Below are positions 1,900-29,516 of a stretch of DNA of 64,000 bases, piece after piece; positions within the stretch are counted from its first letter, which is position 1; every line of letters starts with the position of its first letter. Under the pieces are notes generated by a model. The model saw only the letters and a program-made list of their open reading frames with translations, was not told the DNA's origin and did no database searches. The position numbers and the translations under genes are program-made. Origin of the DNA: Acidimicrobiales bacterium. GTDB lineage: Bacteria > Actinomycetota > Acidimicrobiia > Acidimicrobiales > SZUA-35. The stretch covers positions 1,166-65,165 of the forward strand of contig JBBKWJ010000175.1 of NCBI GenBank assembly GCA_037968895.1, written 5' to 3'.

Positions 1900-1928
1900 T
1901 CGACCCGATTCAACAAATTGTTTATACT
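1900..1928 (+). promoter_or_regulatory. Sigma70-type promoter of operon A with embedded palindromic operator
   Basis: TCGACC(1900-1905)-N17-TATACT(1923-1928); TTCAACAAATTGTTTAT at 1909-1925. Confidence 0.6.
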
Positions 1929-1959
1929 GACCGCCGGGTTCTCGACTCATAGGGTGGTC

Positions 1960-2526
1960 ATGTCCAACTTCGTTCATATCGCATTGCCTGACTGGCTGCC
2001 CGGCGAGGTCGCCGCGGCCCCCGCGTTAGAAACCGATGAAGCAAAAATGAAGTTTGCGCTCCGACTCGCGCAACGCAACGTCGACTCAGACGGCGGCCCG
2101 TTTGCTGCCACGATCGTTGACGAGGCGGGTGCCATTGTTGCCGCCGGTGTCAACCGTGTAGTCCCGTCCTCGATACCGATCGCTCATGCCGAGATTGTTG
2201 CCATCGCGGCCGCTGGTCAAGCACTCGGCACTTGGGACCTCTCCTCGAGGGGCTCGTACACTCTCGTGACGACGACAGAGCCATGCGCGATGTGTCTCGG
2301 CGCAATCCCATGGGCCGGTGTGAAGCGACTCGTAATCGGCGCTCGCGATGCCGATGCCAGGGCTGCCGGGTTCGATGAAGGCAACAAGCCAGCCGACTGG
2401 GTCGAACACCTTGCCACGATCGGGGTCTCAGTTACGCGAGACGTCTGTCGCGATGAGGCAGCGCGGGTATTGTCGAGCTACGCCGAGAGCGGCGGACCGA
2501 TCTACAACGGAGCGCAAGATGCATGA
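1960..2526 (+). CDS. Zn-dependent nucleoside/nucleobase deaminase (guanine deaminase-like, cytidine deaminase fold)
   Basis: GGPF, HAE and EPCAMC motifs; first gene of an XDH operon. Confidence 0.85.
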   Translation: MSNFVHIALPDWLPGEVAAAPALETDEAKMKFALRLAQRNVDSDGGPFAATIVDEAGAIVAAGVNRVVPSSIPIAHAEIVAIAAAGQALGTWDLSSRGSYTLVTTTEPCAMCLGAIPWAGVKRLVIGARDADARAAGFDEGNKPADWVEHLATIGVSVTRDVCRDEAARVLSSYAESGGPIYNGAQDA

Positions 2527-3928
2527 CGTTCAGCTGCCGGCCATTGCCGTGCCGCGCTATGTCGCCCCCGAATCTCTAGAAGATGCGTTGACCCTGCTCA
2601 GCGAGTTTGGCAGTCGGGCACGAATCATTGCTGGTGGCACCGATCTCTTGCTTGAACTGGATCGGCGAGTGCGGACCGACGTCGATGTACTTCTCGACCT
2701 CACCCGAATCGAGGGGCTCGACGTAATCCTTCACGATGGCCGCCGTCTCCACATCGGCCCGACCGCTACCCACAACCAGTGCGTCGCCAATCGTGATGTG
2801 GTCAAGTACGCCCTACCACTCGCTCAGGCGTGCATCGAGGTCGCTTCGCCTGCGCTCCGAAACCGGGCGACCGTGGTCGGCAACATCGTCACCGCGAGCC
2901 CAGCCAACGACACCATTAGCGCATTGAATGTGCTCGACTGCGAGGTCACGCTGATGTCGACTCGCGGTCGCCGCACAATCAAGCTCGCCGACTTCCACAC
3001 AGGTGTTCGCAAGACCTTGATGGAACCAGATGAGCTCGTCACGGGGATCTCAATCGAGCCGGTTCCCGATGATGCGAGGGCAGTGTTCCTGAAGCTCGGC
3101 CTCCGCAAAGCCCAGGCCATCTCTGTCGTCCACCTCGCTGCGTGGTGTCGATTTGATGGCAACAAGGTCACCGAAGCTCGCATCGCCCTCGGCAGCGTGG
3201 CGCCGACGATCGTCCGACTTCCCGAGGTCGAGGCCTATCTCGTTGGCAAGGCGCTGGACGACAGCACCGTGGCCGAGGCGAGCGCTCAAGCTCGGACATC
3301 CGTTCGACCAATTGACGACCTGCGGGCCGACGCCGAATATCGGTCTGAACAGGTCGCCTTTATGGTTGCGCGTGCGTTGCGGGCTCTTGGGGCTAACGAG
3401 CAAGCCTCTGCGTTCCCCGTTGATCCACCGTTCCTTGGCGGTCCCGTCGTGACGTCTTCGCTCGCCGCGCTAGACCACTCCGACGGCGATCCTGTGGCAG
3501 CAACGGTCAACGGAATTGATGTGGTCCGCCCGGCGCAGGCAAGCGAGACCCTTCTCGATTGGCTGCGCGAAGCGGTCGGTCTTACTGGGACGAAGGAGGG
3601 CTGCGCCGAGGGCGAGTGTGGGGCCTGCACGGTGCATCTGGATGGAACCTCGGTGCTCAGCTGTCTGGTTCCTGCAGCCCGAGTCGCGGGGTGTTCGGTG
3701 GTCACAATCGAAGGACTGGCAGCGTCAGCCGAGAAGCTCCATCCATTGCAGGAGTCGTTTATTGAGCATGCCGCCGTGCAATGCGGCTACTGCATTCCTG
3801 GCTTCATCATGGCGGGGGCCTCACTGCAATCTGAATACCCCGCCCCAACTCGTGAGCAACTGCAGGTCGGTCTCTCGGGCAATCTTTGCCGATGCACTGG
3901 GTACGTCAAGATTGAGGAGGCGTTCTGA
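2519..3928 (+). CDS. Xanthine dehydrogenase family FAD-binding subunit fused to (2Fe-2S) subunit
   Basis: AGGTDL, RNRATVVGN, ASPAND FAD motifs, then GCAEGECGAC, QCGYC, CRCTGY clusters; ATG 2519 overlaps upstream gene end. Confidence 0.92.
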   Translation: MHDVQLPAIAVPRYVAPESLEDALTLLSEFGSRARIIAGGTDLLLELDRRVRTDVDVLLDLTRIEGLDVILHDGRRLHIGPTATHNQCVANRDVVKYALPLAQACIEVASPALRNRATVVGNIVTASPANDTISALNVLDCEVTLMSTRGRRTIKLADFHTGVRKTLMEPDELVTGISIEPVPDDARAVFLKLGLRKAQAISVVHLAAWCRFDGNKVTEARIALGSVAPTIVRLPEVEAYLVGKALDDSTVAEASAQARTSVRPIDDLRADAEYRSEQVAFMVARALRALGANEQASAFPVDPPFLGGPVVTSSLAALDHSDGDPVAATVNGIDVVRPAQASETLLDWLREAVGLTGTKEGCAEGECGACTVHLDGTSVLSCLVPAARVAGCSVVTIEGLAASAEKLHPLQESFIEHAAVQCGYCIPGFIMAGASLQSEYPAPTREQLQVGLSGNLCRCTGYVKIEEAF

Positions 3929-6168
3929 TGTCGCTCGGCGTATCAACTAAGCGACCAGATGCCGCGGGCAAGGTCACCGGTAGTGCGGAGTACGCGGGAG
4001 ACAAGTTTCCTGAGGGAGTGCTGCACGGGCTGGTGGTCTTCACCGATCAGCCGCACGCACGAATTGCTCGGCTCGACACTTCGAAGGCCGAGGCTCTACC
4101 TGGCGTGCACCTCGTCCTCACCTCGAAAGATGTGCCGGTCAACGAATACGGCCTCACGATGTTCGACCAACCGGTGCTCATCGGGCCCGAGTCGAGCGGC
4201 GCAAGTCGCGTGCCGCACGATGTCTCTCGCTGGGAGGCCGATCATCTTGCGTTTGTCGTTGCCGACACCGAGGAGATCGCGACCCAGGCCGCTCAACTGA
4301 TCGAGGCCGATTGGGAACAACTAGGTGTCATCGCCGACATCGACGCCGCAATGGCGCCTGGTGCAACCATGATCCACCCTGAGAACGGGCTCGATACCAA
4401 CGCCTACTACCACATCGTTATTCGCAAGGGCGACGTCGCTGCTGCGTTCGAATCTGCCGCTGTGGTAATCGAGGGTACGTACGAGTTGCCATACCAGGAG
4501 CACGCCTATCTCCAACCAGAAGCCGGACTTAGCTACATCGATGAAGCCGGTCGCCCAACGGTAGAGATCGCGGGTCAATGGACCCACGAAGATCAAGAGC
4601 AGATCGCTCATGCCCTTGGCATGGCCCAGGACGACGTCAGAGTCATCTATCCCGCAATCGGCGGTGCGTTCGGCGGCCGCGAAGACATGAGCCTGCAGAT
4701 CGTCATGGCGCTGGCAACGACGCGACTCGCGGCGGCCGGAATCAATCGCCCGATCCGCAGCCAGTGGAGCCGCGAAGAGTCGATTGTTGGGCACCACAAG
4801 CGTCACCGAGGCCGCGTGACCACCCGCTGGGCCGCCGATGCCGACGGCAAGATCCTCGGGGTCGAAGCTGACGCTCACCTCGATGCGGGATCCTACAACT
4901 ACACGTCAAACAAAGTCCTTGGCAACCTCCACTTAACGGTGGCGGGATCCTACGAGGTGCCAGCCGCTCGCATTGATAGTTATTGCGTCTATACGACAAC
5001 TGTCCCTGGCGGCGCGTTCCGTGGATTCGGTGGGCCACAGGGCTGTTTCGTCGCTGAGATGCAGATGAATCGGCTTGCGGCCGAGCTCTCAATCGACCCG
5101 GTTGAGATTCGCCGCCGCAACACACTCCGCGAAGGTTCAATCGGCATCACGTCGACGCCTCTTCCTGCTGGGGTCAGCCTGCCTGAGGTCATCGAGGCCT
5201 GCGCCGACAGCGCTCAGTGGCATGAACCACTCGGGCCACCGAAGCCGATTGCCGCATACGCCTCGCTGCCCGCATCAACGGCTACATCTCGCCGAGGTCG
5301 CGGGTTCGCGTGCACATACAAAAACGTCGGCTTTTCATTTGGATTTCCCGAGCGCTCGAACGCCACAATCATTCTTCACGGCGATGATGAACCGTCGTCG
5401 GCCGAGGTCTTCTTGGCTGGCGCCGAAGTCGGTCAAGGGGCGCACACGGCCTTTGTCCAGATGACGGCGGAAGCAACGGGCGTTCCGTTCGACTCGATCA
5501 CTCCGACCTTTTCCGACACGGCAACCACCGCCGACTCCGGGTCAGCATCGGCCTCCCGTCTCTCGTGGATGACTGGAAATGCCATCCTTGGTGCGGCCGA
5601 GGAAGCACAGAAAGCGTGGCTCGACGGCGATCGGCCTGCGGTTGGTGCGTTCCGCTACACGCCACCGCCAACCGAGGCGCTCGACCCTGAGGGTGCGCCG
5701 ACTACACCGAATTTCTCATACGGCTATGTCGCTGAGGCCGTCGATCTTTCGGTCGATATCGAGACCGGCCATATCGTGGTGCACGACGTGGTGTGTGCGG
5801 TCGATGTTGGCCGAGTCATCAACCCGCAGTTGGTTACGGGCCAGGTCGAGGGGGCAATTGTGCAAGCCCACGGCTATGTATTGTCCGAGAATCTGATCGT
5901 TGAAGAGGGCCGTGTGCTCAATCCCCGGTTCAGTAGCTACCTGATTCCTGGCATTGGCGACGTCCCTGAGTCCATCAGATCCGTGCTCGTCGAACACCCA
6001 GACCCGCGAGGTCCGTTTGGTGTGAGAGGCATGGCCGAGATGCCACTCATGCCGTACGCACCAGCCATCGTCGCTGCGCTCCACGATGCCACCGGTGTCT
6101 GGTTCCACTCCTTCCCGCTCACTCCGTCAAGGGTGAGGTCTCAGCTACGAAAGAAGACACATGACTGA
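3928..6168 (+). CDS. Xanthine dehydrogenase family molybdopterin-binding subunit
   Basis: QEHAYLQPE, GGAFGG, AFRGFG, GQG, SASASR, RGMAE (catalytic Glu) motifs. Confidence 0.93.
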   Translation: MSLGVSTKRPDAAGKVTGSAEYAGDKFPEGVLHGLVVFTDQPHARIARLDTSKAEALPGVHLVLTSKDVPVNEYGLTMFDQPVLIGPESSGASRVPHDVSRWEADHLAFVVADTEEIATQAAQLIEADWEQLGVIADIDAAMAPGATMIHPENGLDTNAYYHIVIRKGDVAAAFESAAVVIEGTYELPYQEHAYLQPEAGLSYIDEAGRPTVEIAGQWTHEDQEQIAHALGMAQDDVRVIYPAIGGAFGGREDMSLQIVMALATTRLAAAGINRPIRSQWSREESIVGHHKRHRGRVTTRWAADADGKILGVEADAHLDAGSYNYTSNKVLGNLHLTVAGSYEVPAARIDSYCVYTTTVPGGAFRGFGGPQGCFVAEMQMNRLAAELSIDPVEIRRRNTLREGSIGITSTPLPAGVSLPEVIEACADSAQWHEPLGPPKPIAAYASLPASTATSRRGRGFACTYKNVGFSFGFPERSNATIILHGDDEPSSAEVFLAGAEVGQGAHTAFVQMTAEATGVPFDSITPTFSDTATTADSGSASASRLSWMTGNAILGAAEEAQKAWLDGDRPAVGAFRYTPPPTEALDPEGAPTTPNFSYGYVAEAVDLSVDIETGHIVVHDVVCAVDVGRVINPQLVTGQVEGAIVQAHGYVLSENLIVEEGRVLNPRFSSYLIPGIGDVPESIRSVLVEHPDPRGPFGVRGMAEMPLMPYAPAIVAALHDATGVWFHSFPLTPSRVRSQLRKKTHD

Positions 6169-7927
6169 TGTCGTAAGCAATGAAGAAGAGCCTCTCACGC
6201 CGCAGTCGCTTTCAGTGCTGCTTGACCGCATCACACGAGAGTGGAGTTCACGACAGCGCATCTTCGATCTCCCGACCGCCCGGTTCTACAACGTCGAGGA
6301 CGGACCCGATCTGAGCAGTGACTTCCTTGGTCGGCGCATTTCGACGCCGGTCGGCCCCGCTGCTGGTCCGCACACCCAACTCGCACAAAACATCGTCTTG
6401 GCCTGGCTGGGCGGTGGACGACTTTTTGAGCTGAAAACAGTTCAGGTGATCGACGATCTCGTCATCAATCGTCCCTGTATCGACATGGAGACGATTGGTT
6501 TCAACACGGAGTGGAGCCAGGAGCTAAAGGTTTCGCAGTCGCTCGAGGAATACGTGAAGGCATGGATGATGCTCGACATTCTTGCCAAGTGGGACCCGCT
6601 CACCGACTATCTGGGGTCTGACCCTGGCGACCACGTCTTCGATCTATCGGTTGGCTACGACCTTGAGGGGATCAAGACCGAGAAGGTCGCGGCCTTTATT
6701 CGCGGCATGAGAAACGCGACGCCAATCATCGATGCAATGCGGAAGGAGATGACGGGAGAGTGGGCCCAGTTCGCCGACCTTGACTTCAACCCCGATATGT
6801 CAGACACGCTGACACTGTCGACGTTCCATGGATGTCCTCCAGAACAGATCGAGCTCATCACGAAACATCTCATCGCCGATCATGACCTGAACGTGATCGT
6901 CAAGCTCAATCCGACCCTGCTCGGCTACGACCGAGTTGGTTCGATTCTCCATGACACGCTTGGCTTCACTGAGCTTCAGCTCGACCCAAAGGCGTTCGAC
7001 GCTGATCTCCAGTTTGAGCGTGGCATCGAGCTCATCGGCGATCTGCAACAGTTTGCAGCCGATCATGGCAAGGAATTCGGCATCAAGTTGACGAACACAA
7101 TGATCGTCAACAACCACAAGGGCTTTCTCGGCGACGACACGATGTACATGTCGGGCCCGCCGCTCCACGTACTTGCAATGACCGTCCTCTCCGAGCTCAA
7201 CCGGGCCCTGCCTGGTCAGCTTCGGGTCGATGGGCATTCGAAGAACACCGCTCCAATCCAAGTCAGCTGGTCAGCTGGTATCGACAAGACCAACGTGGCC
7301 GACACGCTTCGACTCGGCATCGTGCCGACGACAATCTGTTCCGATCTGCTGAAACCGGGCGGCTTCGGTCGGCTCGCCCCGCTGGTGAAGCAACTTGGCA
7401 AAGATGTTGTCGCCGCTGGCCACGACTCACTCGCATCGTTTGTGGCGGCCACCCAACCGGGCGCCGTCGATGCATACGTCGCCACCTTGTATGCACCTGA
7501 CACGAATAGTGCGTACACAAAAGAGGGCACGTCGAAGTTGCCTCGATCTGTCGATCACGACCTCGAGATGTGGGGCTGCGTTGCCTGCAACTTCTGTGTG
7601 ACGGTATGCCCTAACGACGCTTTTCTGAAGCTCCCCAGCCCTGAGAGCTGGGGGAATCGCTGGGAATACGTCGTGCTGGCCGAGTCGTGCAATGAGTGTG
7701 GCAATTGCATGGTGTTCTGTCCTGAAGACGGCGACCCGGCTCAAATCAAACCGAAGCTCTACCTGAACGAGCACCGGTTTGAGAACGCTGTTGGTCCCGC
7801 ATTTCTGATCGGCAAGGATGACAACCTGACGGTCATCAGGGCAGGCGATGCGGTCAAAGACCAGGTCGCCAATCTCACCGAAGTGCTGGCGGGCACGGAT
7901 GGGTTACCCATCCGACCGCACCAGTAG
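6161..7927 (+). CDS. YgfK-like protein: dihydroorotate-dehydrogenase-type barrel plus 2x[4Fe-4S] ferredoxin domain, without the NAD(P)H/FAD module
   Basis: GPAAGPHTQLAQNI, ELKTVQ, RPCID, FNTEWS, TLSTFHGCPPEQIE, VKLNPTLLGY, KLTNT, MYMSG; CVACNFCVTVCPN and CNECGNCMVFCP. Confidence 0.85.
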   Translation: MTDVVSNEEEPLTPQSLSVLLDRITREWSSRQRIFDLPTARFYNVEDGPDLSSDFLGRRISTPVGPAAGPHTQLAQNIVLAWLGGGRLFELKTVQVIDDLVINRPCIDMETIGFNTEWSQELKVSQSLEEYVKAWMMLDILAKWDPLTDYLGSDPGDHVFDLSVGYDLEGIKTEKVAAFIRGMRNATPIIDAMRKEMTGEWAQFADLDFNPDMSDTLTLSTFHGCPPEQIELITKHLIADHDLNVIVKLNPTLLGYDRVGSILHDTLGFTELQLDPKAFDADLQFERGIELIGDLQQFAADHGKEFGIKLTNTMIVNNHKGFLGDDTMYMSGPPLHVLAMTVLSELNRALPGQLRVDGHSKNTAPIQVSWSAGIDKTNVADTLRLGIVPTTICSDLLKPGGFGRLAPLVKQLGKDVVAAGHDSLASFVAATQPGAVDAYVATLYAPDTNSAYTKEGTSKLPRSVDHDLEMWGCVACNFCVTVCPNDAFLKLPSPESWGNRWEYVVLAESCNECGNCMVFCPEDGDPAQIKPKLYLNEHRFENAVGPAFLIGKDDNLTVIRAGDAVKDQVANLTEVLAGTDGLPIRPHQ

Positions 7928-7930
7928 CTT

Positions 7931-8650
7931 CTACTTGCTGCGGACTCGGCTGACCTTGACCCGCGAGGCCGTCAGTTGGACGAGTGCCAACAGGGCGATG
8001 CCGGCACCGAGTAATGCCAGCCCGCTTGATGCGATCATGTAGGTCGTTGATGTGCCGGTTACCGGAAGCGTCGCTGAGGGACCAGCGGGAGCCGGTGCGG
8101 TGGTCACTGGGCTGACCACGATGCTGGTGGTCGATTCCACGACCGTTGGGCCTGACGGCTCAGGGGCAGTGGTTGCCGTTGGCGCTGGGACGGTGGTTGG
8201 AACGTCGACAATCGTTGGGGGCAGTGAGATGGAGACTTGTTCGGCGCACTCGCTGAACGAGATGACGAAACCGCCACTCGATATGCCGTCGGAACCAAGA
8301 GTTATGGAGACAGTGATGGTGTCGCCGAGCACCATGACTTGCTCAATTTCGTGGCCCATGCTTGGGATATCTTCGACGTTCTCGACTGTGATTTTGGAGT
8401 CGCCCGAGACAATATGAAGGTCGTTGCCTGGATGAATGGAACCGTTGTTGACGGTGCTCGCTCGGCCGCTACAAACCCAACCAATATGCTCGGCAGGAAC
8501 GGCCTCGGTGGCGACAACGATGGTTTCGCCTGGTTCGCCTACGGTAATTCCTTCGACGGGGAACGAAATGACTTGCTGAGCGAGAGTCGCGGGACCCGTA
8601 ATTGCTACGAGCGCGAAGGCCGTGCTAGCGAGAGCAAAAAACTTCTTCAT
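7931..8650 (-). CDS. Sortase-anchored (LPXTG) cell-surface protein
   Basis: Signal peptide MKKFFALA..., Pro/Thr-rich stalk, LPVTG + hydrophobic segment + basic tail; GGAGG RBS upstream of ATG 8650. Confidence 0.85.
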   Translation of the reverse strand: MKKFFALASTAFALVAITGPATLAQQVISFPVEGITVGEPGETIVVATEAVPAEHIGWVCSGRASTVNNGSIHPGNDLHIVSGDSKITVENVEDIPSMGHEIEQVMVLGDTITVSITLGSDGISSGGFVISFSECAEQVSISLPPTIVDVPTTVPAPTATTAPEPSGPTVVESTTSIVVSPVTTAPAPAGPSATLPVTGTSTTYMIASSGLALLGAGIALLALVQLTASRVKVSRVRSK

Positions 8651-8748
8651 CGGTTCCTCCACCGGATACACCTGTGGTGACAGGTTGGCCACTGCCCGTG
8701 ACACAAGTGATCAGACTAGCAAGTTGTGCTGCGCTTCGTTTGCATCCC

Positions 8749-17319: not shown

Positions 17320-17365
17320 CAGAGGAACATAGCCGAGCCCAGTGACAGTCGATTAGTCTGCGGCC

Positions 17366-19062: not shown

Positions 19063-19077
19063 CTACAGTCATCACCT

Positions 19078-20244
19078 ATGCGAATTCTGCACACAAGTGA
19101 TTGGCACTTGGGCCGCTCCTTCGGCGATTTCCGACTACTCGACGACCAACGAGACTTTCTCCAGTGGCTCGTCGAGCTCTGCAAGGATCGCGAAGTCGAA
19201 TTGGTCGCAATCGCTGGTGACCTATTCGATCGCTCTGTCCCGCCCGCCGATGCGGTTGCCTTGCTTCGAGACACCCTTCGATCATTTCAGGCCGCTCACA
19301 TCGAAGTCGTCGCGATTGCGGGCAACCACGACAGCGGCGACCGGCTCGCGGCCTACGACGGCTTGACCGAAGCCTCGGGCTTGCTCATACGGGGCGGCTA
19401 CGAACGAGCGGCGCAGGTCGAAGTCCGGGACTTCAGCGATGGCCCGCTCGCGATTGCCGCCGTGCCGTTCCTCGACCCAGTCTTGGCCCCAGAGGGCTAC
19501 CTCGAACCAGACGAGTCCGTGGGTCGACTGCACCGGTATAGCCACGAAGGCGTGCTGCGTGCTTGTCTAGATCAGATCCGAGCATCGGTGGCGGAGCACC
19601 CTCGGTCGCTGGTCTTGGCTCACGCCTTCGTTGCTGGCGGAGCAGAGAGTACGAGTGAACGCGAACTCTCGATTGGGGCGGCGAGCATGGTCTCCGCGTC
19701 CGTCTTCGACGACTTCTCCTACTGCGCCCTCGGACACCTCCACCGTCCCCAGGTCGTCGATAAGCGACCTCATGTTCGCTACTCGGGATCGCCACTCGCC
19801 TACTCGTTTTCTGAGCGCGAAGACTCGAAAGAGGTGGTGTTGGTCGAACTCGATCCTGAGGGAAACGCCTCAATTGAGTCGATCAAGGTTCCTGGCGGCC
19901 GGCGAGCCCGTGTAATCACCGACCGGTTCGATCAAGTGATGCAGCATCCAGGCTTTGACGACGACCCGTTTGTCCGAATCGAGCTGCTCGACCAGACACG
20001 AATTATTGACGCCCATCGGCGACTCCGAGAGAAGTTTCCTTACCTCGCCGAGATCGCCTATATCGCTGAAGACACCAGCCCCACCTCAGCGGCTCCTCGC
20101 TCGGCGGTGCTTCGTGAGCTGTCCCCGCTTGCCCAGGTCCAGGCCTTCTGGAGCGCAAACGCAGCCGGCGAGTTGGAGCCAGATCAAGAGTCTTTAGTGG
20201 TCGACGTACTCGAAGAACTGCAGCGAGAAGAGGCGGCGCGATGA
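19078..20244 (+). CDS. sbcD: Exonuclease SbcCD subunit D
   Basis: HTSDWHLG, GDLFD, GNHD, LGHLH, YSGSPLAYSFSE. Confidence 0.95.
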   Translation: MRILHTSDWHLGRSFGDFRLLDDQRDFLQWLVELCKDREVELVAIAGDLFDRSVPPADAVALLRDTLRSFQAAHIEVVAIAGNHDSGDRLAAYDGLTEASGLLIRGGYERAAQVEVRDFSDGPLAIAAVPFLDPVLAPEGYLEPDESVGRLHRYSHEGVLRACLDQIRASVAEHPRSLVLAHAFVAGGAESTSERELSIGAASMVSASVFDDFSYCALGHLHRPQVVDKRPHVRYSGSPLAYSFSEREDSKEVVLVELDPEGNASIESIKVPGGRRARVITDRFDQVMQHPGFDDDPFVRIELLDQTRIIDAHRRLREKFPYLAEIAYIAEDTSPTSAAPRSAVLRELSPLAQVQAFWSANAAGELEPDQESLVVDVLEELQREEAAR

Positions 20245-23200: not shown

Positions 23201-23636
23201 AAATAAACACCTCGCACCGATGAGCAGCGGTCGCTATGAGCTTGTGGTTGCCGACGCCCCAGACGACCGTCGCCGCGAGGCTGGCCTCGATCTCACTGTG
23301 CTCGATGCCCGAAGCGGAAAAGCCCGACCCGTTGCATCCTTGTCGGGTGGTGAGACGTTTCAGGCCTCACTCGCACTGGCACTCGGCCTGGCCGATGTGG
23401 TGTCTGCCAACAGGGGCGGGGTTCAGATCGACGCACTCTTTGTCGACGAAGGCTTCGGATCGCTCGACGCGGAAGCGCTAGATCACGCAATTGACGTACT
23501 CGATGGCCTCCGCAGCCGGGGTTCGCTCGTCGGCGTCATCACCCACGTCGAAGCGATGAAGCAGGCGCTCCAGGTTGGGATTGTCGTCGAACGAGACCCG
23601 ACTGGCAACGGATCACGCCTGACCCAGTTGGTGTAA
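20241..23636 (+). CDS. sbcC: Exonuclease SbcCD subunit C (SMC-like ATPase)
   Basis: GPTGAGKT, LLPQGQF, long coiled coil with CVVCGS zinc hook, LSGGE, FVDEGFGSLD, ITH. Confidence 0.95.
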   Translation: MKPIWLRMQAFGPYAGTAEVDFLRLSEVGLFVVSGPTGAGKTSIFDAMAYALFGDLPGERSGFNELRSDHAALDLLCEVEFHFDAAGKRWRVHRVPTQERAKKRGTGTAKELAKASLDRFENGEWQAVSSSVRDVSERCSDLIGLNADQFQRVVLLPQGQFQQVLKAKSAERRELLRTLFSSSLYSKIELRLKERASAAESVLDDLGRQQGSDHEVARTALFDAAKVLEADEPQLDLSSTLETLDSLAAALCDPVLSTKRELLVGSVAAMHAAATAREKAEAQVRVLERLEMLGTRQASLAGQAAQQAATRHRVEQAERARPLAKTAESVNAHAAQASEARDVALRLTRQLATQGEEAGIATAGVVVGEVPARQAIADARSQAGVVADATRQATERLVSAKKAQADALAATAACAEESDNLALLEKRRSDLDQQQIERRAAVSALETTAAGTEQKVADHVAATERLSLARRLGALVSLAAEIEANAAAQEAIQETILAQLVALEPAIEAIRERANALDARTQRAVQLRSVRERRDRLSESHLAAAELSTKSLAASERATATLRRFERAASPRLAESLVDGEPCVVCGSREHPAPATADSADSDRADLAAVEQTNAAASELVRQLGEATATAEALIEALGEHVSIEIDELNRQTGEAEASIADAELAVRQLAESQAEQVDLRAQSERVSALIVGINDELRTVQSERAHVEGALGAAASLPIEDLSERVAAADALVVEARASVERIDIVNAELQQADVALAQCAADIVQTQQAHARHEQTREIETARADEILAGIDGSLDDYIARGLLVDEFLGAVERLSDAQLAVAEHEARREALSVALSEQLGESDFASIEVALESVLEPAHQKQLQASFDDWETKSAEVAAAIREVRQGDLPDEAPNVEALVEAEKAAAAHEQNVRAQVTAADLHLTQATERLARIRTLEAAVAETRASAQRVKELADVCAGNGPTRRSLESWVLAAHLRDVVELANKHLAPMSSGRYELVVADAPDDRRREAGLDLTVLDARSGKARPVASLSGGETFQASLALALGLADVVSANRGGVQIDALFVDEGFGSLDAEALDHAIDVLDGLRSRGSLVGVITHVEAMKQALQVGIVVERDPTGNGSRLTQLV

Positions 23637-23669
23637 CGAGCGAGGTACGCGAATCGGCCAGCGCCATAA

Positions 23670-23698
23670 CTTGACAAATTGTTGAATTGTGGCACCAT
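23670..23698 (+). promoter_or_regulatory. Promoter of operon B with palindromic operator overlapping the -35
   Basis: TTGACA(23671-76)-N16-CACCAT(23693-98), 6 nt before GTG 23705; CTTGACAAATTGTTGAAT at 23670-23687. Confidence 0.6.
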
Positions 23699-23704
23699 GT
23701 ACCA

Positions 23705-24952
23705 GTGATCGGAACCCATTTACGCGTCAGTCGCGATCGACTTCTCGATCGTCTGGCCGAGCTCTCAGCCATTGGCGGCATCGAAGGAACAACGGGTTCA
23801 GCGAGGCTGGCCCTGACCGATGAAGACAAACTTGGTCGTGATCTCGTCGTGTCGTGGATGCACGACCTTGGGCTGACCGTCACTACCGACACGATCGGCA
23901 ACACCATCGGGATTAGAGCCGGCACCGACGACCTTCCAGTTGTTCTGACCGGAAGCCACATAGATACCGTCCGCACCGGTGGTCGCTACGACGGTAATCT
24001 CGGCGTGCTCGCCGGTCTTGAGGCGATTGAGACATTGGCTACCGCCGGGGTTGTGACAAAACACCCCATTGGCGTCGGATTCTTCACCAACGAAGAAGGG
24101 GCCCGCTTCGCACCAGACATGATGGGTTCGTTGGTGTACGTCGGCGGCATGCCGGTTGAAGAAGCACACGACACGATCGGCATTGACGGAGCCCGCGTCG
24201 GCGACGAACTCGATCGAATCGGATACCTGGGGTCGTCGCCTTGCCCCGGACTTACACCGCATGCGTTCGTCGAACTGCACATTGAACAGGGGCCAGTGCT
24301 CGAAGAGGCTGGAATCCAGATTGGCGTTGTCGAGGGCGTCCAAGGCATCTCGTGGACCGAAATCCTCATCACAGGACAATCGAACCATGCGGGTACGACA
24401 CCAATGCGGTTGCGCCACGACCCCGGCTATGCGGCGGCTCGCATCGCCACGTTTGTCCGAGAACTCGTCGATGAGATCGGCCACCCACAGGTCGGAACCG
24501 TTGGTGTCCTTAACCTCGCACCAAATTTGATCAATGTGGTGGCGGCGAGCGCCATCTTGACTGTCGACCTTCGCAATACGGATGAGGAAGTGCTGCAAGC
24601 GGTCGAGGCCAGGTTCGCGGCGTTCTGTGATGCCCTGGCTCAATCGGAGGGTGTCACGATTGAGCGACGCACTCTGGCCCGATTTTCGCCGGTAGTTTTT
24701 GACGATCGGCTGATCGACCTTATTCAGCAGTCAGCGACGACTGCCGGGCTCTCAACCAAACGACTTCCGTCAGGAGCCGGGCATGATGCACAGATGATGG
24801 CTCGAATCTGCCCGACAGGAATGATCTTCACACCGAGTGAAAATGGGCTAAGCCATAACCCTGCAGAACACACAGACGCCGCCGATCTGGAAGCAGGCGC
24901 AAACGTGCTGCTTGACGTATTGGTCACGTTGGCCACTGGAGAAATCGTATGA
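23705..24952 (+). CDS. M20 Zn-dependent amidohydrolase (allantoate amidohydrolase / N-carbamoyl-L-amino acid hydrolase / beta-ureidopropionase family)
   Basis: GSHIDTV, YDG, NEEG, ELHIEQG, HAGTTPM, SGAGHDAQ, SHNPAE. Confidence 0.92.
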   Translation: MIGTHLRVSRDRLLDRLAELSAIGGIEGTTGSARLALTDEDKLGRDLVVSWMHDLGLTVTTDTIGNTIGIRAGTDDLPVVLTGSHIDTVRTGGRYDGNLGVLAGLEAIETLATAGVVTKHPIGVGFFTNEEGARFAPDMMGSLVYVGGMPVEEAHDTIGIDGARVGDELDRIGYLGSSPCPGLTPHAFVELHIEQGPVLEEAGIQIGVVEGVQGISWTEILITGQSNHAGTTPMRLRHDPGYAAARIATFVRELVDEIGHPQVGTVGVLNLAPNLINVVAASAILTVDLRNTDEEVLQAVEARFAAFCDALAQSEGVTIERRTLARFSPVVFDDRLIDLIQQSATTAGLSTKRLPSGAGHDAQMMARICPTGMIFTPSENGLSHNPAEHTDAADLEAGANVLLDVLVTLATGEIV

Positions 24953-25911
24953 TTGCCGAGCGTTCGATAACCGTTGGCGCAGCCCAGATGGGCCCTATCC
25001 AACGAGAGCACACCAGGAAAGAGGTTGTCGAGCGACTCATCGCGTTGCTTCACGATGGAGCGAAGCGTGGCGTCGACCTCGTGGTCTATCCCGAGCTCGC
25101 ACTCACAACGTTCTTCCCCCGGTGGCACATTACCGATCAAGACGAAATTGACGCTTGGTACGAGACAGAGATGCCGGGGCCGGTCACCCAGCCACTATTC
25201 GACGAGGCGAAGCGTCTCGGGATCGGGTTTGCACTTGGCTACGCCGAGCTGCAAACCGATGACGACGGCACGGTGCATCACTACAACACGATGATGTTGG
25301 TCGATCGAGCTGGCGCGACTGTCGCCAAGTATCGCAAGGTCCATATTCCGGGCCACGACTCTCACGAACCCGATCGTCCTTTCCAGCACATGGAGCGTTT
25401 CTACTTTGAACCGGGGCCAGATGGCTTTGGAGCGTGGCGAGCGTTCGACGGCATCTTGGGGATGATGATCTGCAACGATCGCCGCTGGCCTGAGACCTAT
25501 CGCGAGATGGGTCTCCAAGGCGTCGAGATGATTCTCTGTGGCTTCAATACGCCGCTGTATTACGCCCCTGACCCTGGCCAGAATGTGTTGCAGGGCTTTC
25601 ACAACCACTTAGTCATGCAAGCTGGTGCATACCAGAACGGGACTTGGGTGATCGGTGTTGCCAAGGGCGGCGTCGAAGAGGGTGTCGAGTCGCTGTGCCA
25701 AACCGCAATCATTGCACCGTCTGGCCAAATCGTGGCTCAAGCGATCACCCAAGGTGATGAGCTTGTCGTCGCGTCGTGTGACCTTGACTGGTGCAACAAC
25801 TACAAGGACACGCTGTTCAACCTTGAGTATTACCGGATGCCCCAGTACTACACGAGAATTACCAGCCAACGCGGCGCAGTGCTGCCCGCAGAGAAAGTGG
25901 ACCAATCATGA
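24949..25911 (+). CDS. N-carbamoyl-D-amino acid amidohydrolase (D-carbamoylase, nitrilase superfamily)
   Basis: YPELALTTFFPRW (Glu), YRKVHIPGH (Lys), ICNDRRWPE (Cys), MQAGAYQNG. Confidence 0.88.
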   Translation: MIAERSITVGAAQMGPIQREHTRKEVVERLIALLHDGAKRGVDLVVYPELALTTFFPRWHITDQDEIDAWYETEMPGPVTQPLFDEAKRLGIGFALGYAELQTDDDGTVHHYNTMMLVDRAGATVAKYRKVHIPGHDSHEPDRPFQHMERFYFEPGPDGFGAWRAFDGILGMMICNDRRWPETYREMGLQGVEMILCGFNTPLYYAPDPGQNVLQGFHNHLVMQAGAYQNGTWVIGVAKGGVEEGVESLCQTAIIAPSGQIVAQAITQGDELVVASCDLDWCNNYKDTLFNLEYYRMPQYYTRITSQRGAVLPAEKVDQS

Positions 25912-28478
25912 CCATCGCATCGACGGGAACCGTCTCGCTCACAGTTAATGGTGAACAGGTCGAAGTCTCTGATCAGCATCCAAACCTTCTCTTTGCCTTG
26001 CGCGAGGAGCTGAAGCTCATCTCGCCAAAGGACGGCTGCTCGCCGTCAGGGCAGTGTGGTTGCTGCACCGTGCTTGTCGGCGGCAAGGCCATGGTGTCGT
26101 GCACCACCTCACTGGAGAAGGCCATCGGCAAAGAGGTCGTGACGCTCGAAGGCATGCCCGAAGACGAGGTCAATCGGTTCGCCGATGTTTTCGCTGCGTG
26201 TGGTGCCCTTCAGTGCGGCTTTTGCACGCCTGGCATCGTGGTCCGGGCCAAGTCGCTCATCGACAAGAAGGGTGCAGGGCTCAAGCGAGACGACGCGGCG
26301 CGCCACCTTGGCGCCCACCTCTGCCGCTGCACCGGCTACGTCAAAATCCTCGATGCCATTGAGCTGTTGGCTCAGGGAACGGCCGTCACGCTCACACGCA
26401 ATGGTGGTGTCGGGTCGTCTGGCGTTAAGTACGAGGGTCGTGAGCTGGCCATCGGCAAGCGTCCGTTCATCGACGACATGGACCTCGAGGGCATGCTCCA
26501 CGGCGCCCTTCATCTTTCCGAGCACGCCCGGGCAAACATCGTTGCGATCGACGCGTCGGCCGCCTTGGCTATCGAAGGCGTCGAAGCCGTCTACACCGGA
26601 GCTGACGTTCCCGGCGACCTAAGAACCGGCCTGATCCACAAGGACTGGCCCTGTTTCATTCCCGTCGGTGGCCGCACGAGCTATCGCGGCGACGTGCTTG
26701 CCATCGTGGTCGCTACTTCGAAGCAACTCGCCCGCGACGCGGCCGATCTCATCGAGATCACCTACGACGTTCTGACCCCAATTACCGATCCTGTTGCCGC
26801 GGTGAATGGAGCGGAAGATGCGGTCTGGCAACTCGATGGAAATGTGCTGTCGACCTCGGCCTACACAATCGGTACAGATGTGACAGAGGCACTCGACGGT
26901 TGCGCCCACGTGTCGCATGAGATCTTCGAGACTCAGCGAATTGAGCATGCGTTCGTTGAGCCAGAGTCGAGCCTCGCCGAACCACGAGAAGATGGCTCGA
27001 TCTATGTCTGGTCAGGGGGTCAGGGTATATGGGACGACCGTGACTCGATCGCTGCAATTCTTGCGCTTGATCCCTCAAAGGTCACGGTTGAGTTGGTGTC
27101 GAACGGCGGTGCCTTTGGCGGCAAAGAAGACATGTCGAACCAGGGCCAAACCGCCCTTGCGGCCCATCTGATTGGTCGCCCAGTAAAGACCACACTCACC
27201 CGCGAGCAGTCGTTTCGGATGCACGCCAAGCGCCACCCAATCAAGATCGAGAGCTGGGCCGGCTGCGACGAAAACGGTGTCATGCAGGCCCTGAAACTTC
27301 GCATGATCGGCGACTCGGGGCCATACGCCTCGGTCGGTATGAAAGTACTCGAACGAGCGGCCGGACACGGTTGCGGCCCATACGCAATTCCAAACATCGA
27401 CATCGAAGCCATCGCGGCTCGAACGAACAACCCGGTTTGTGGTGCGTTCCGCGGCTTCGGCGCCAATCAGGCGCAGTTCGCCATGGAGGGCCAGATGGAT
27501 CGGCTCGCCGAGAAGGCAGGAATCTCTGGCTGGGAGATTCGTAACCGCAACGTTATTAAGCCCGGCATGACCTGGGGCCCGGGTCAGATCATGGACAGCG
27601 GTGCCGGTGGAGCGCAGGAATGCCTCGACCAAGCGAAGCCGTTCATCGACGCAGCTGTCGCAGCAGGCAAGGCCGTTGGGCTTGGGCTTGGCCTCAAGAA
27701 TTCGGGGCTTGGTAACGGTTTCATAGAGATAGCGAAGGCCGTCATCCACTATCGCGAAGACGGCAAGGTCGAGGTGCGACATTGCTGGACCGAGATGGGC
27801 CAAGGTGTGCACACGGTGGCGATGCAAGTTGCCATTGAGGAGCTAGGCCTCGATCCAGACTGCATTGAAGTGATTGTCGATACTTCCCGTGAGCTGGGCC
27901 TTGGGCAAACGACAGGCTCCCGCGGCACGGTTATGGCCGCTGGTTCGGTGCAAGACGCCTGCCGGGTGGCGAAAGAAGGCGGCTGCCAGATCGGGGTCGA
28001 CTATGAAGGCGAGTACAGGGTCGATTGGACCACCAAGCTCGGTGACCCAAATGTCGTTAACCCTCTAATTCACTCGACGTTCTCCTACGCAGCCCAGATC
28101 GCTATTGCCGACAAGGAATCAGGCAAGATTGAGAAGGTCGTTGCGATCCACGACGTCGGCCGCGCCGTCAACCCACTGCTCGTGATCGGGCAGGTCGAAG
28201 GGTCAGTCCACATGGGCCTCGGCTATGCGCTAACTGAAGACTTCCCAACCGACGACGAAGGTCGGTTGCTCCACACCACACTTCGTTCGCTCGACATCAT
28301 TCGGCCAAAAGATGTTCCCGAGATTGAGGTTGTGCTTGTTGAAGTGCCACAACCAGACTCACCATACGGAATCAAGGGTGTCGGCGAGATCGGTCTAGTT
28401 CCGACAGCAGGTGCAGTGGCGTCTGCACTCCATAAGGTTGACGGTCGCTGGCGCAACAAGCTCCCCATGAAAGATTAG
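25908..28478 (+). CDS. Molybdenum hydroxylase with fused (2Fe-2S)+Mo domains, resembling the selenium-dependent xanthine dehydrogenase family
   Basis: N-terminal GCSPSGQCGCC, QCGFC, CRCTGY; IEHAFVEPE, GGAFGGKED, AFRGFG, LKNSGLG, TTGSR, KGVGE; 856 aa. Confidence 0.88.
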   Translation: MTIASTGTVSLTVNGEQVEVSDQHPNLLFALREELKLISPKDGCSPSGQCGCCTVLVGGKAMVSCTTSLEKAIGKEVVTLEGMPEDEVNRFADVFAACGALQCGFCTPGIVVRAKSLIDKKGAGLKRDDAARHLGAHLCRCTGYVKILDAIELLAQGTAVTLTRNGGVGSSGVKYEGRELAIGKRPFIDDMDLEGMLHGALHLSEHARANIVAIDASAALAIEGVEAVYTGADVPGDLRTGLIHKDWPCFIPVGGRTSYRGDVLAIVVATSKQLARDAADLIEITYDVLTPITDPVAAVNGAEDAVWQLDGNVLSTSAYTIGTDVTEALDGCAHVSHEIFETQRIEHAFVEPESSLAEPREDGSIYVWSGGQGIWDDRDSIAAILALDPSKVTVELVSNGGAFGGKEDMSNQGQTALAAHLIGRPVKTTLTREQSFRMHAKRHPIKIESWAGCDENGVMQALKLRMIGDSGPYASVGMKVLERAAGHGCGPYAIPNIDIEAIAARTNNPVCGAFRGFGANQAQFAMEGQMDRLAEKAGISGWEIRNRNVIKPGMTWGPGQIMDSGAGGAQECLDQAKPFIDAAVAAGKAVGLGLGLKNSGLGNGFIEIAKAVIHYREDGKVEVRHCWTEMGQGVHTVAMQVAIEELGLDPDCIEVIVDTSRELGLGQTTGSRGTVMAAGSVQDACRVAKEGGCQIGVDYEGEYRVDWTTKLGDPNVVNPLIHSTFSYAAQIAIADKESGKIEKVVAIHDVGRAVNPLLVIGQVEGSVHMGLGYALTEDFPTDDEGRLLHTTLRSLDIIRPKDVPEIEVVLVEVPQPDSPYGIKGVGEIGLVPTAGAVASALHKVDGRWRNKLPMKD

Positions 28479-28487
28479 TGTGCAACT

Positions 28488-29516
28488 GTGACTGAAACTG
28501 GTGTAACTCCTGGCCTGGTGTGTGGACACCACCACCTCTACTCTGCACTCGCTCGGGGTATGCCTGCACCACCGGTTACGCCCGGTGGCTTCATCCAGAT
28601 TCTTGAGCAGGTGTGGTGGCGGCTTGACACGGCGCTCGACCTCGAGATGCTTCGGTGGTCGGCCATGCTCGGGGCAATGGAAGCGCTGAAGTCTGGCACC
28701 ACTGCGATCATTGATCATCACGAGTCGCCAAACGCAATTGAGGGTTCGCTCACTGTTATCGCCGAGGCGTGCGCCGAAGTGGGTGTTCGCGTCAACTGCG
28801 CATACGGCGTGACCGACCGGCATGGCGCCGATGGTGCCAGGGCGGGTCTCAAAGAGAACGAACGCTTCATTCGTGGCGGTGGACGAGGCATGGTTGGGCT
28901 TCACGCTGCGTTTACTTGCGAGAACAAGACCCTTGACGATGCAGTTGGTCTTGCTGACGATCTTGGGGTTGGCATCCATGTGCACGTCGCAGAAGGAATC
29001 GGCGATGCGGGCAGTGGAGCGGCGCTAGCCCGACGGGCCAAAGACAACTGGTTGCTCGTGCACGGTGTCAACCTTCCCGATGGCATCGTGACTGCGGGAA
29101 CGCTGGCGCACAATCCGCGTTCCAACATGAACAACTCAGTTGGCTATGCCCACCCAAACCGCTTTGATGTGCCAGTCATACTTGGCACCGATGGCATTGG
29201 CGCCGACATGCTCGATGAGTTTCGCCTTGCGTATGTCCGCCTTCGTGAGCTTGATGTGACCGCAACTCCAGACACGGTTTGGGCATGGCTTGAAAACGGC
29301 TGGAAGTTTTTCCCTGAGGCCAAAGACGACGTCGTGACGTGGAACTACCCAACCATGGAACCGTGGCACCTCGCGTTTACGACTGGCGTTCACCCGGTTG
29401 ACATCGTCGTCGACGGTGAGCACGTGCTTAAAGATGGCAAAACGACGCGCGTCGATGAAGCCGAGGTCAGGGCAAAGGCCGCCGAGCAGGCAGCCCGACT
29501 CCACGCCCTCCTTTAG
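28488..29516 (+). CDS. ssnA: SsnA-like amidohydrolase
   Basis: PGLVCGHHHLYSALARG, WWRLD, IDHHESP, GLHAAFT, HVHVAEG, HNPRSNMNNSVG, LGTDG; shorter than typical SsnA. Confidence 0.8.
   Translation: MTETGVTPGLVCGHHHLYSALARGMPAPPVTPGGFIQILEQVWWRLDTALDLEMLRWSAMLGAMEALKSGTTAIIDHHESPNAIEGSLTVIAEACAEVGVRVNCAYGVTDRHGADGARAGLKENERFIRGGGRGMVGLHAAFTCENKTLDDAVGLADDLGVGIHVHVAEGIGDAGSGAALARRAKDNWLLVHGVNLPDGIVTAGTLAHNPRSNMNNSVGYAHPNRFDVPVILGTDGIGADMLDEFRLAYVRLRELDVTATPDTVWAWLENGWKFFPEAKDDVVTWNYPTMEPWHLAFTTGVHPVDIVVDGEHVLKDGKTTRVDEAEVRAKAAEQAARLHALL

Follow-up and report, generated by a model that had tools for sequence, protein, structure and literature searches.

In Escherichia coli, according to the accessible text of Li et al. 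(2025; PMC12507026, bioRxiv 10.1101/2025.05.19.654654), urate is converted to 2,8-dioxopurine by XdhD–YgfM, the ring is then reduced by YgfK and opened by SsnA to give ureidomethyl-hydantoin, and the hydantoin is opened by HyuA; one ureido group is removed by YgeW, phosphorolytically and thus feeding carbamate kinase, or, in Clostridioides difficile, by the hydrolytic UacY, the other by YgeY, and YgeX carries diaminopropionate on to pyruvate. In Clostridium sporogenes the formation of 2,8-dioxopurine is ascribed, in the accessible part of Liu et al. (2025; bioRxiv 10.1101/2025.04.24.650524), to XdhAC (DOPDH), a selenium-dependent enzyme devoid of flavin-adenine dinucleotide (FAD). The commentary by Percudani (PMC12990295) restricts the pathway to obligate or facultative anaerobes and asks, as an open question, which physiological donor supplies the FAD-less hydroxylase with electrons; the accessible text of Li et al., for its part, proposes an F420-dependent ring reductase for the Chloroflexota and mentions the Actinomycetota solely in stating that SsnA is "prevalent" there (PMC12507026). 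Here we describe a window—the whole stretch of DNA analyzed, 64,000 nucleotides of contig JBBKWJ010000175.1 in the assembly GCA_037968895.1 of an Acidimicrobiales bacterium—whose operons A (1960–7927) and B (23705–29516) encode in two separately transcribed parts, with a probability that we place at about 0.7, a single route from purines to pyruvate, this being the form that the reductive 2,8-dioxopurine (yanthine) pathway of uric-acid degradation takes in the Acidimicrobiia.

The logic of the E. coli pathway (xdhD–ygfM, ygfK, ssnA, hyuA, ygeW, yqeA, ygeY, ygeX), consisting in a dehydroxylation, a reduction, the opening of two rings, and the removal of two ureido groups, would be maintained in this variant. 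In contrast to E. coli, however, the YgfK of the window lacks the FAD/NAD(P)H module, the SsnA lacks the N-terminal strands, the hydroxylase linked to it is a TIGR03311-type protein with no FAD subunit, a D-carbamoylase and an L-carbamoylase-type hydrolase lie within the operon, the genes are distributed over at least four operator-bearing units, and the host possesses genes for oxygen respiration, two full-length heme-copper oxidase subunit I genes being present in the source genome. That genome does encode homologues of XdhD, YgfM, HyuA, YgeW, YqeA, YgeY, YqeB, and YqeC outside the window, whereas YgeX was not found in it. With the XdhAC of C. sporogenes, to which we liken the window hydroxylase by the length and the description given in the accessible part of the source, the latter enzyme shares an FAD-less architecture of iron–sulfur (FeS) and molybdenum (Mo) domains of about 850 aa, and in both instances a separate xanthine dehydrogenase (XDH) would feed urate into the pathway. 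Unlike the C. sporogenes YgfK (DOPOR), however, the short YgfK of the window has no module by which it could itself use NADPH; moreover, since YqeC occurs in only 5 of the 36 sampled Acidimicrobiia genomes that encode the hydroxylase, a selenium dependence such as that of XdhAC is doubtful for most of them. In Clostridioides difficile, by the accessible text of Li et al. (2025), UacX is a PydA-like reductase that has no FAD domain, and UacY is a hydrolytic enzyme resembling D-aminoacylases, so that the likeness to our locus would reside in a reductase equipped with flavin mononucleotide (FMN) and FeS clusters alone, which enzyme needs an external low-potential donor, and in the hydrolytic removal of the 2-ureido group, both roles being predicted ones for the proteins of the window; the difference is that a trimmed YgfK stands here in place of a PydA homologue, and a nitrilase-superfamily D-carbamoylase in place of the amidohydrolase-fold UacY. 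The reductive pyrimidine and D-hydantoinase processes likewise share with the window a fold like that of dihydropyrimidine dehydrogenase (DPD) with FMN and FeS clusters, a D-carbamoylase, and an M20 enzyme near N-carbamoyl-β-alanine amidohydrolase, but in the window these genes are embedded with those for SsnA, a Mo hydroxylase, XDH, and guanine deaminase.

Judged from their sequences, then, the Acidimicrobiia genes probably encode a variant of the reductive urate pathway, which was described in 2025 in gut anaerobes and is encountered here in environmental members of that class, about one-third of the class genomes sampled (39 of 121) having SsnA. We found no account of this variant either in papers that mention the Acidimicrobiia together with uric acid, which do so incidentally, or in those on 2,8-dioxopurine since 2025, of which none among those listed, considered by their titles and the beginnings of their abstracts, dealt with environmental bacteria; the supplements of Li et al. 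may list such neighborhoods.

Sequences and Searches

Genes in the window were called from six-frame open reading frames (ORFs) in combination with Pfam and NCBIfam profile searches. For the analysis of synteny we took the best 80 of 314 relatives of the short YgfK, each with up to 10 kb on either side (1.29 Mb in total), and located the genes therein by tblastn and hidden-Markov-model matches, not by ORF calls, the DNA having 60% GC. Nearly all of those best 80 carry Acidimicrobiia or Acidimicrobiales labels, in agreement with the initial annotation of the window, which had considered a probable actinobacterium as its source. Some bear the name of Ilumatobacter, a genus with cultured strains. 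Co-occurrence was assessed in a class sample of 121 Acidimicrobiia genomes, the source genome included, by comparing the lists of genomes obtained for each gene. The source genome is a bin of 4.34 Mb in 320 contigs, 95% complete and with 4.67% contamination. The observations that follow concern the domains of the proteins, homology, synteny, co-occurrence, and the conservation of motifs, and each substrate named along with them is a predicted one.

The Two Operons

Operons A and B are co-directional strings of genes whose stops and starts overlap or abut. Their gene content and coordinates agree with the initial annotation, to which we add the short forms of YgfK and SsnA, the start of the FAD+FeS fusion, the genes of the intervening block, and the extent of the operator.

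Operon A begins with a deaminase of the CDA fold, probably a guanine deaminase (1960–2526, + strand; PF00383, 78 bits), which would deaminate guanine. Its full-length matches in the PDB are 2g84 (E 1.4e-42, the best), which we take to be a guanine deaminase, and then the Bacillus subtilis guanine deaminase 1wkq (E 7e-21). An XDH-type FAD subunit fused to a 2×[2Fe-2S] subunit follows (2519–3928, +; FAD_binding_5, CO_deh_flav_C, Fer2, and Fer2_2), scoring 299 bits with TIGR02963 (xdhA-small) against a cut-off of 467; within a frame open from 2348, the start is most likely the ATG at 2519, which overlaps the deaminase stop at 2526. The XDH-type molybdopterin subunit (3928–6168, +; Ald_Xan_dh_C, MoCoBD_1, and MoCoBD_2) scores 497 bits with pucD against a cut-off of 784, retains the column of the catalytic Glu, and in the alignment does not have the Glu606 loop of XdhD. 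The enzyme composed of these two products (2519–6168) would convert hypoxanthine and xanthine to urate.

The last gene of operon A encodes a short YgfK of 588 aa (6161–7927, +), presumably the 2,8-dioxopurine reductase, in which a DPD-like FMN barrel is followed by one 2×[4Fe-4S] domain, namely a single CxxCxxCxxxCP...CxxCxxCxxxCP dicluster motif. Of the 1012 positions of TIGR03315, only 4–394 and 888–980 are matched and 395–887 are not, with a score of 444.3 bits that lies below the curated cut-off of 835.3. The protein is 40% identical to residues 5–415 of E. coli YgfK, the N-terminal DPD-like FMN catalytic domain thus being present, and the E. coli residues from about 430 to 890 appear as gaps in the alignment, the central GltD-like 4Fe-4S/FAD/NAD(P)H module being missing. 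An AlphaFold (AF2) model made from 26 relatives reached a pLDDT of 77, with the barrel confident and the cluster domain poor, and the best folds that Foldseek returned for that model were the pig DPD (E 4e-8) and dihydroorotate dehydrogenases. On these alignments the missing module, which the initial annotation had overlooked, is the main mechanistic difference from the known pathway. The ring would be reduced at the DPD-like FMN site, to which the electrons would come through the 2×[4Fe-4S] domain from an external donor, either a ferredoxin or some other FeS protein, and we infer such a donor because the NAD(P)H/FAD module of the E. coli YgfK is lacking. This trimming of the NAD(P)H-reading parts bears on the question, raised in the commentary, of which physiological donor supplies the FAD-less hydroxylase. 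GltD-like genes in the source genome are confined to the gltBD pair on contig C237 and to one gene on contig C286; the GltD of the pair, considered as the lost YgfK module, was rejected as the ordinary small-subunit partner of GltB.

Operon B opens with an M20 amidohydrolase of the L-carbamoylase/β-ureidopropionase/allantoate-amidohydrolase family (23705–24952, +; GTG start, with an alternative TTG at 23687), which scores 416 bits with TIGR01879 against a cut-off of 204 and whose nearest solved structures are N-carbamoyl-L-amino-acid and N-carbamoyl-β-alanine hydrolases (E 1e-85 to 1e-95). The next gene encodes an N-carbamoyl-D-amino-acid hydrolase (D-carbamoylase) of the nitrilase superfamily (24949–25911, +; PF00795, 161 bits), matching 6lei in the PDB over residues 5–310 (E 3e-118, 398 bits) and the Agrobacterium structures 1fo6 and 1erz (E 1e-102 to 1e-104); the two carbamoylases are thus those that the initial annotation had named. 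The PELAL, YRKVH, and ICND stretches of the D-carbamoylase, compared with those of four orthologues only, are conserved among them and are presumably the sites of the Glu-Lys-Cys triad. In those orthologues, selenocysteine at in-frame TGA codons was considered and rejected, the TGAs being ordinary stops at the gene ends. The D-carbamoylase would remove the 2-ureido group, and the M20 enzyme, acting as a β-ureido hydrolase, the 3-ureido group, both by hydrolysis.

The third gene encodes an FAD-less 2×[2Fe-2S]+Mo hydroxylase of 856 aa (25908–28478, +), which unites Fer2_2, Ald_Xan_dh_C, MoCoBD_1, and MoCoBD_2 domains in one protein, no FAD gene being present within operon B; with TIGR03311 it scores 771.7 bits over positions 2–843 of 848, below the curated cut-off of 830.45. 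We presume this protein to be the urate/2,8-dioxopurine oxidoreductase (DOPDH-like), which would remove the 6-oxo group of urate to yield 2,8-dioxopurine. The operon concludes with a short SsnA of 342 aa (28488–29516, +), predicted to be the amidohydrolase that would open the reduced ring, with 260.1 bits for NF005540 and 241.1 bits for TIGR03314, over model positions 56–437 of 441, both below the cut-offs of 444–455.5. This protein does not have the N-terminal β-sandwich strands or part of the C-terminal sandwich and is 33% identical to the E. coli SsnA, every metal-binding or catalytic motif of which is kept (HxH, IDHH, H, HxHxAE, HNxRSNMNN, and LGTDG). For the three core proteins the top-scoring NCBIfam models are those of YgfK, SsnA, and TIGR03311, a placement that stands with the YgfK, SsnA, and FeS+Mo hydroxylase families proposed in the initial annotation, and not with pyrimidine, nicotinate, or aldehyde enzymes.

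Synteny and Co-occurrence Among the Acidimicrobiia

The proposal that A and B form one unit is upheld by the relatives, in which the genes of both are contiguous or intermixed and the operator is conserved in common. At least one operon-B gene was found in 67 of the 80 short-YgfK loci: the short SsnA in 58, the FeS+Mo hydroxylase, adjoining that SsnA, in 51, the D-carbamoylase in 39, and the M20 enzyme in 19. The XDH FAD/FeS gene was found in 20 loci, and the deaminase, there adjoining the XDH genes, in 16. The commonest order is D-carbamoylase, hydroxylase, SsnA, and YgfK, optionally followed by the deaminase and XDH. At L036, one of the three closest relatives, the series deaminase–XDH–XDH–YgfK is directly continuous with the M20 and D-carbamoylase genes, and in the complete genome behind L035 the M20–carbamoylase–hydroxylase group lies about 200 kb from the XDH–YgfK–SsnA group. 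We conclude that this sub-lineage is dispersing an ancestrally compact cluster and that the DNA-repair block between A and B represents one such rearrangement.

Within the class sample, the 39 SsnA-positive genomes encode short SsnA frames of 339–360 aa. The FeS+Mo hydroxylase is present in 36 of the 121 genomes, all of them SsnA-positive (36/39), and the D-carbamoylase in 34, all of them hydroxylase-positive (34/36); this last enzyme is a core gene of the variant across the class. YgfK-like proteins were found in 22 genomes, again all SsnA-positive, of which proteins 16 are short and six are full-length frames of 1116–1275 aa. Since both short forms are widespread in the lineage—the short YgfK having 314 relatives, with nearly all of the 80 listed labelled as Acidimicrobiia—the short YgfK and the short SsnA are the rule and not the result of damage.

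Related Genes Elsewhere in the Genome

The initial annotation had attributed to the pathway downstream enzymes different from those of E. coli, a proposal that holds in part, the canonical ygeW/ygeY/dpaL set, which that annotation had itself named as evidence to the contrary, being present elsewhere except for dpaL. Across the source genome, HyuA-, YgeW-, YgeY-, SelD-, YqeB-, and YqeC-like proteins were found, and dpaL/ygeX and uricase were not; that is, of the E. coli-type set the homologues of HyuA, of YgeW with YqeA, and of YgeY are present outside the window, and only dpaL/ygeX is missing. The best match in that genome to TIGR03528, the YgeX model, had 44.6 bits against a cut-off of 532, and tblastn with the E. 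coli YgeX gave nothing at 1e-8; nor did this 95%-complete genome yield any uricase, 2-oxo-4-hydroxy-4-carboxy-5-ureidoimidazoline decarboxylase, or 5-hydroxyisourate hydrolase.

The hydantoin would be opened by a HyuA-like D-hydantoinase on contig C189, 41% identical to the E. coli HyuA, next to which lie another M20 enzyme and another CN-hydrolase, together with an F420-type luciferase-like monooxygenase (LLM) oxidoreductase and an ABC transporter. The cluster (C189, L021, 8437–16878) comprises the M20 carbamoylase, which is divergent, the aguB-like CN-hydrolase, the D-hydantoinase/dihydropyrimidinase, the TIGR03842 F420-type LLM oxidoreductase, and the transporter, and may constitute an F420-dependent reductive route for pyrimidines or hydantoins; its divergent intergenic region contains a different palindrome, CTTTGTTTACAACAAAG, at about 9753–9769. 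In 17 of the 80 relatives' loci an orthologue of the C189 CN-hydrolase adjoins the urate cluster in divergent orientation.

On contig C6 an operon encodes a carbamate kinase (YqeA-like, 39% identity), a YgeW-like protein (45%), and a YgeY-like protein (31%); the YgeW-like protein was found in five of the 121 class genomes, all SsnA-positive. Hydrolytic decarbamoylation, as the initial annotation had envisaged, is then the standard solution of the class in the form of the D-carbamoylase, but this genome possesses a carbamoyl-phosphate module as well. With that module present on C6, the further claim that the organism would favor nitrogen scavenging over the conservation of carbamoyl phosphate, and thus forgo the conservation of ATP, does not hold for this genome. 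Upstream of the C6 operon, and adjoining a GH65 phosphorylase, are two tandem paralogues of the hemolysin-III/PAQR (TrhA-like) type, of 235 aa each (C6, L022, 13932–15405, –).

A third Mo-hydroxylase locus extends over C246:1–4783 (L116) and C70:1–1277 (L115) and encodes an XdhD-like FeS+Mo protein of 977 aa with a YgfM-like FAD subunit, and further YqeB and YqeC; the assembly divided the locus inside yqeB, the contig ends overlapping at residues 335–376 of the E. coli YqeB. The SelD of the genome (C219:12140–13060, L026; 354 bits against a cut-off of 125) has one in-frame TGA, as would a selenocysteine-containing selenophosphate synthetase, which feature suggests that the organism probably uses selenium. 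SelD, YqeB, and YqeC are thus all present, the latter two beside the XdhD-like enzyme, and this one genome combines both types of hydroxylase with both modes of decarbamoylation.

The Operator and Its Candidate Regulator

That A and B have an operator in common, as the initial annotation had proposed, was borne out by the counts: the core ACAAATTGTT occurs exactly at 1913–1922 and 23674–23683, and with at most one mismatch it occurs five times in the window versus 1.45 expected, one of 100 shuffles having reached five. Operator A (TCAACAAATTGTTTAT, 1910–1925), a 6-3-6 imperfect inverted repeat, ends 35 nt before the deaminase ATG and overlaps a TATACT hexamer resembling a –10 box, and operator B (TTGACAAATTGTTGAA, 23671–23686) ends 19 nt before the GTG at 23705. 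The consensus of the repeat is TYRACA-N3-TGTYRA, over 15–16 bp. A weight matrix applied genome-wide gave its five best scores at B (29.0), C237 (26.0), C144 (23.8), C50 (22.4), and A (22.0). Sites scoring at least 22 in the 4.34-Mb genome numbered four, versus none in each of five Markov simulations; only that of C144 is independent among them, the matrix having been trained with both window sites and the C237 site.

The C144 site (C144:20963–20978) precedes by 46 nt a permease–permease–PnrA–ATPase operon, the orthologue of which (60% identity) is a transporter found in the pathway clusters of relatives. Some 50–65 nt separate the C237 site (C237:19881–19896) from a downstream pair of pyridoxal-phosphate (PLP) enzymes, the first a protein of 498 aa with a distant likeness to cysteine synthase (E 1e-11), the second, directly after it, resembling serine/threonine dehydratases. 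Orthologues of the 498-aa enzyme occur in 35 of the 121 class genomes, all SsnA-positive (0 of the 82 SsnA-negative), often a few kilobases from the cluster. This PLP pair, which is not linked to the window genes, is our strongest candidate to fill the place of YgeX.

In the 80 loci of the relatives, 65 sites scored at least 17, of which 57 precede a cluster gene by no more than 300 nt, and 44 loci have such a site. Sites homologous to A are found upstream of the deaminase/XDH genes in L034–L036, the closest relatives, a 16-mer identical to site B upstream of XDH in L035, and near-identical ones upstream of the M20 gene in L083 and L095. No operator was found near the YgeW/YqeA/YgeY cluster of C6, the hydantoinase cluster of C189, or the XdhD-like cluster of C246/C70 among the 40 best hits (score at least 14.4).

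A gene of the HTH_22 family (PF13309), encoding a protein of 160 aa, is present in 37 of the 80 loci and typically diverges from the operator. In the class sample the family occurs in 31 of the 121 genomes, with one copy in each save one genome, and by its coordinates is near cluster genes in more than half. The source genome has a single homologue, shorter (116 aa) and unlinked, on contig C130, and we infer that this regulator probably binds the inverted repeat. The operators at both window promoters, the PLP pair, and the PnrA-type transporter would then form one regulon, and the two window units are, by this predicted co-regulation, held together by regulation rather than by position. The operator together with the HTH_22 protein also offers a handle for locating the remaining genes of the pathway through the regulon, which approach yields here the two PLP enzymes and the PnrA-type ABC transporter. 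As in HTH_22-type regulators such as YheO and DauR, the protein is small, has a C-terminal HTH_22, and diverges from its would-be target genes, but it has no match to a PAS_6-type N-terminal domain.

The site at C50:26079–26094 (L119:4080–4095), the operator-like TTGCCAAATTGTAGAA with a score of 22.4, precedes by 32 nt a sulfite reductase/phosphoadenosine-phosphosulfate reductase operon and may be a chance match or reflect a wider control.

Weighing of the Alternative Interpretations

Several findings weigh against the assignment of the window to the reductive urate pathway. All three core proteins—YgfK, SsnA, and the hydroxylase—score under the curated cut-offs of their families, for which reason annotation pipelines applying those cut-offs would withhold the family names. 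For both Mo subunits the nearest solved structures—the aldehyde oxidoreductase, 4-hydroxybenzoyl-CoA reductase, and nicotinate dehydrogenase—stand at about the distance of XDH, and the substrates of the three Mo enzymes could be told apart neither from those structures nor from the GGxFGxK(E/Q) residue and the catalytic Glu. Seventeen of the 39 SsnA-positive genomes gave no YgfK-like match with this query, yet have the hydroxylase and SsnA, so that a different ring reductase must serve there. The hydantoinase of the C189 type is present in 31 of the 39 SsnA-positive class genomes but also in 12 of the 82 SsnA-negative ones, and in none of the 80 loci is it clustered with the pathway. The other contigs, moreover, are tied to the source organism by binning, in a bin with the fragmentation and contamination stated above; in support of the assignment, the genes concerned have orthologues of 60–80% identity in relatives of the class. 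Finally, the operator begins with TTGACA and could in part be a –35 box, and the window hydroxylase does not have the Glu606 loop of XdhD (TIGR03313), which loop Li et al. (2025), in the accessible text, tie to the formation of 2,8-dioxopurine.

This last point leads to a first rival, which we consider unlikely. Since the C246 enzyme has the Glu606 loop and the window hydroxylase does not, the former could be the real urate reductase: the XdhD-like/YgfM-like enzyme, matured by YqeB/YqeC and SelD, would make 2,8-dioxopurine from urate as in E. coli, the window hydroxylase would be a (hypo)xanthine or purine hydroxylase, and the operon-A enzyme would act on another substrate. The C246 protein is indeed the best match to the E. 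coli XdhD in the genome (36% identity over the full length), has the aligned Glu within the loop, and is adjoined by YqeB/YqeC, SelD with its in-frame TGA is present, and TIGR03311, the best model for the window hydroxylase, is itself named "selenium-dependent xanthine dehydrogenase." The distribution of the genes, however, speaks for the window enzyme: XdhD-like proteins occur in only eight and YqeC in only five of the 121 class genomes, whereas the window-type hydroxylase is found together with SsnA in 36 of 39 genomes, and in most loci the two genes are next to each other, and the three SsnA-positive genomes that do not have this hydroxylase all encode an XdhD-like enzyme. That complementary pattern is our main reason for giving the step from urate to 2,8-dioxopurine to the window hydroxylase. 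In addition, the DOPDH of C. sporogenes, whose length of about 840–850 residues we deduce from the mention of "amino acids 307-839" in the accessible part of its description, is FAD-less like the window enzyme.

With regard to the regulation, the common 16-mer might be no operator but a strong promoter typical of the lineage, consisting of a TTGACA –35 box and an A/T-rich spacer, in which event the operons would be similarly expressed without being co-regulated. Most sites do begin with TTGACA, and the high-scoring C50 site precedes the unrelated sulfite-reductase operon. Site A, however, keeps the palindrome without having TTGACA, many sites in the relatives are perfectly symmetric (TTTACA-N3-TGTAAA), a symmetry that a –35 box does not need, the 16-mer is kept while its flanks diverge, 57 of the 65 sites are upstream of pathway genes, and the HTH_22 gene beside them is single-copy, divergent, and confined to pathway-positive genomes (31 of 31), all of which renders that explanation improbable.

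That the cluster should degrade some other N-heterocycle or ureide (a pyrimidine, a hydantoin, or an oxidized guanine derivative), its likeness to YgfK and SsnA reflecting merely the common chemistry of ring reduction followed by ring hydrolysis, we regard as highly improbable, for although the core proteins fall under the family cut-offs, the short YgfK folds like DPD, the D- and L-carbamoylases are generic enzymes of the hydantoinase process, and the SsnA-like amidohydrolase also matches, weakly, the 8-oxoguanine deaminase model, no other family nevertheless comes within 180 bits of the YgfK and SsnA models, the genes for guanine deaminase and the XDH-type enzyme adjoin each other or lie in one transcription unit, a transporter of the PnrA type, a purine-nucleoside family, lies under the same operator, and a separate dihydropyrimidinase cluster exists on C189.

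Returning to the reductive urate pathway as the reading that we prefer, a more ambitious version can be formulated, which as a whole we deem unlikely: in an oxygen-respiring, uricase-less lineage, the pathway would be a self-contained redox circuit of FeS proteins, in which the electrons that the co-transcribed XDH withdraws from hypoxanthine and xanthine would be passed to the FAD-less hydroxylase and the short YgfK without the participation of NAD(P)H, xanthine being in effect isomerized to 2,8-dioxopurine and then reduced, with the PLP pair as a new end of the pathway and an HTH_22 regulon acting through the 6-3-6 operator.

Intervening and Flanking Genes

The block that interrupts the two operons (7931–23636) is outside the pathway and contains, according to Pfam, a hypothetical gene, recD, recB, recC, an alpha/beta hydrolase, an M23 peptidase, sbcD, and sbcC, of which recD, recB, and recC occupy 8749–17319 on the – strand and sbcD and sbcC occupy 19078–23636. 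None of these genes, recBCD and sbcCD included, occurs in the vicinity of the short YgfK across the relatives' 80 loci, and no sign of a mobile element was seen in the block.

Downstream of operon B and convergent with the short SsnA is the gene of a major-facilitator-superfamily transporter (29513–30643, –; PF07690, 38.7 bits), which is not a conserved neighbor in the 80 loci and whose role in the pathway is uncertain. Upstream of operon A, a protein that we had considered as electron donor and then dropped, since it stands beside the short YgfK in none of the 80 loci, has 540 aa, of which the N terminus forms a NirD-like Rieske [2Fe-2S] domain and some 430 residues are without a family match, and its gene (256–1878, +) ends 31 nt before operator A.

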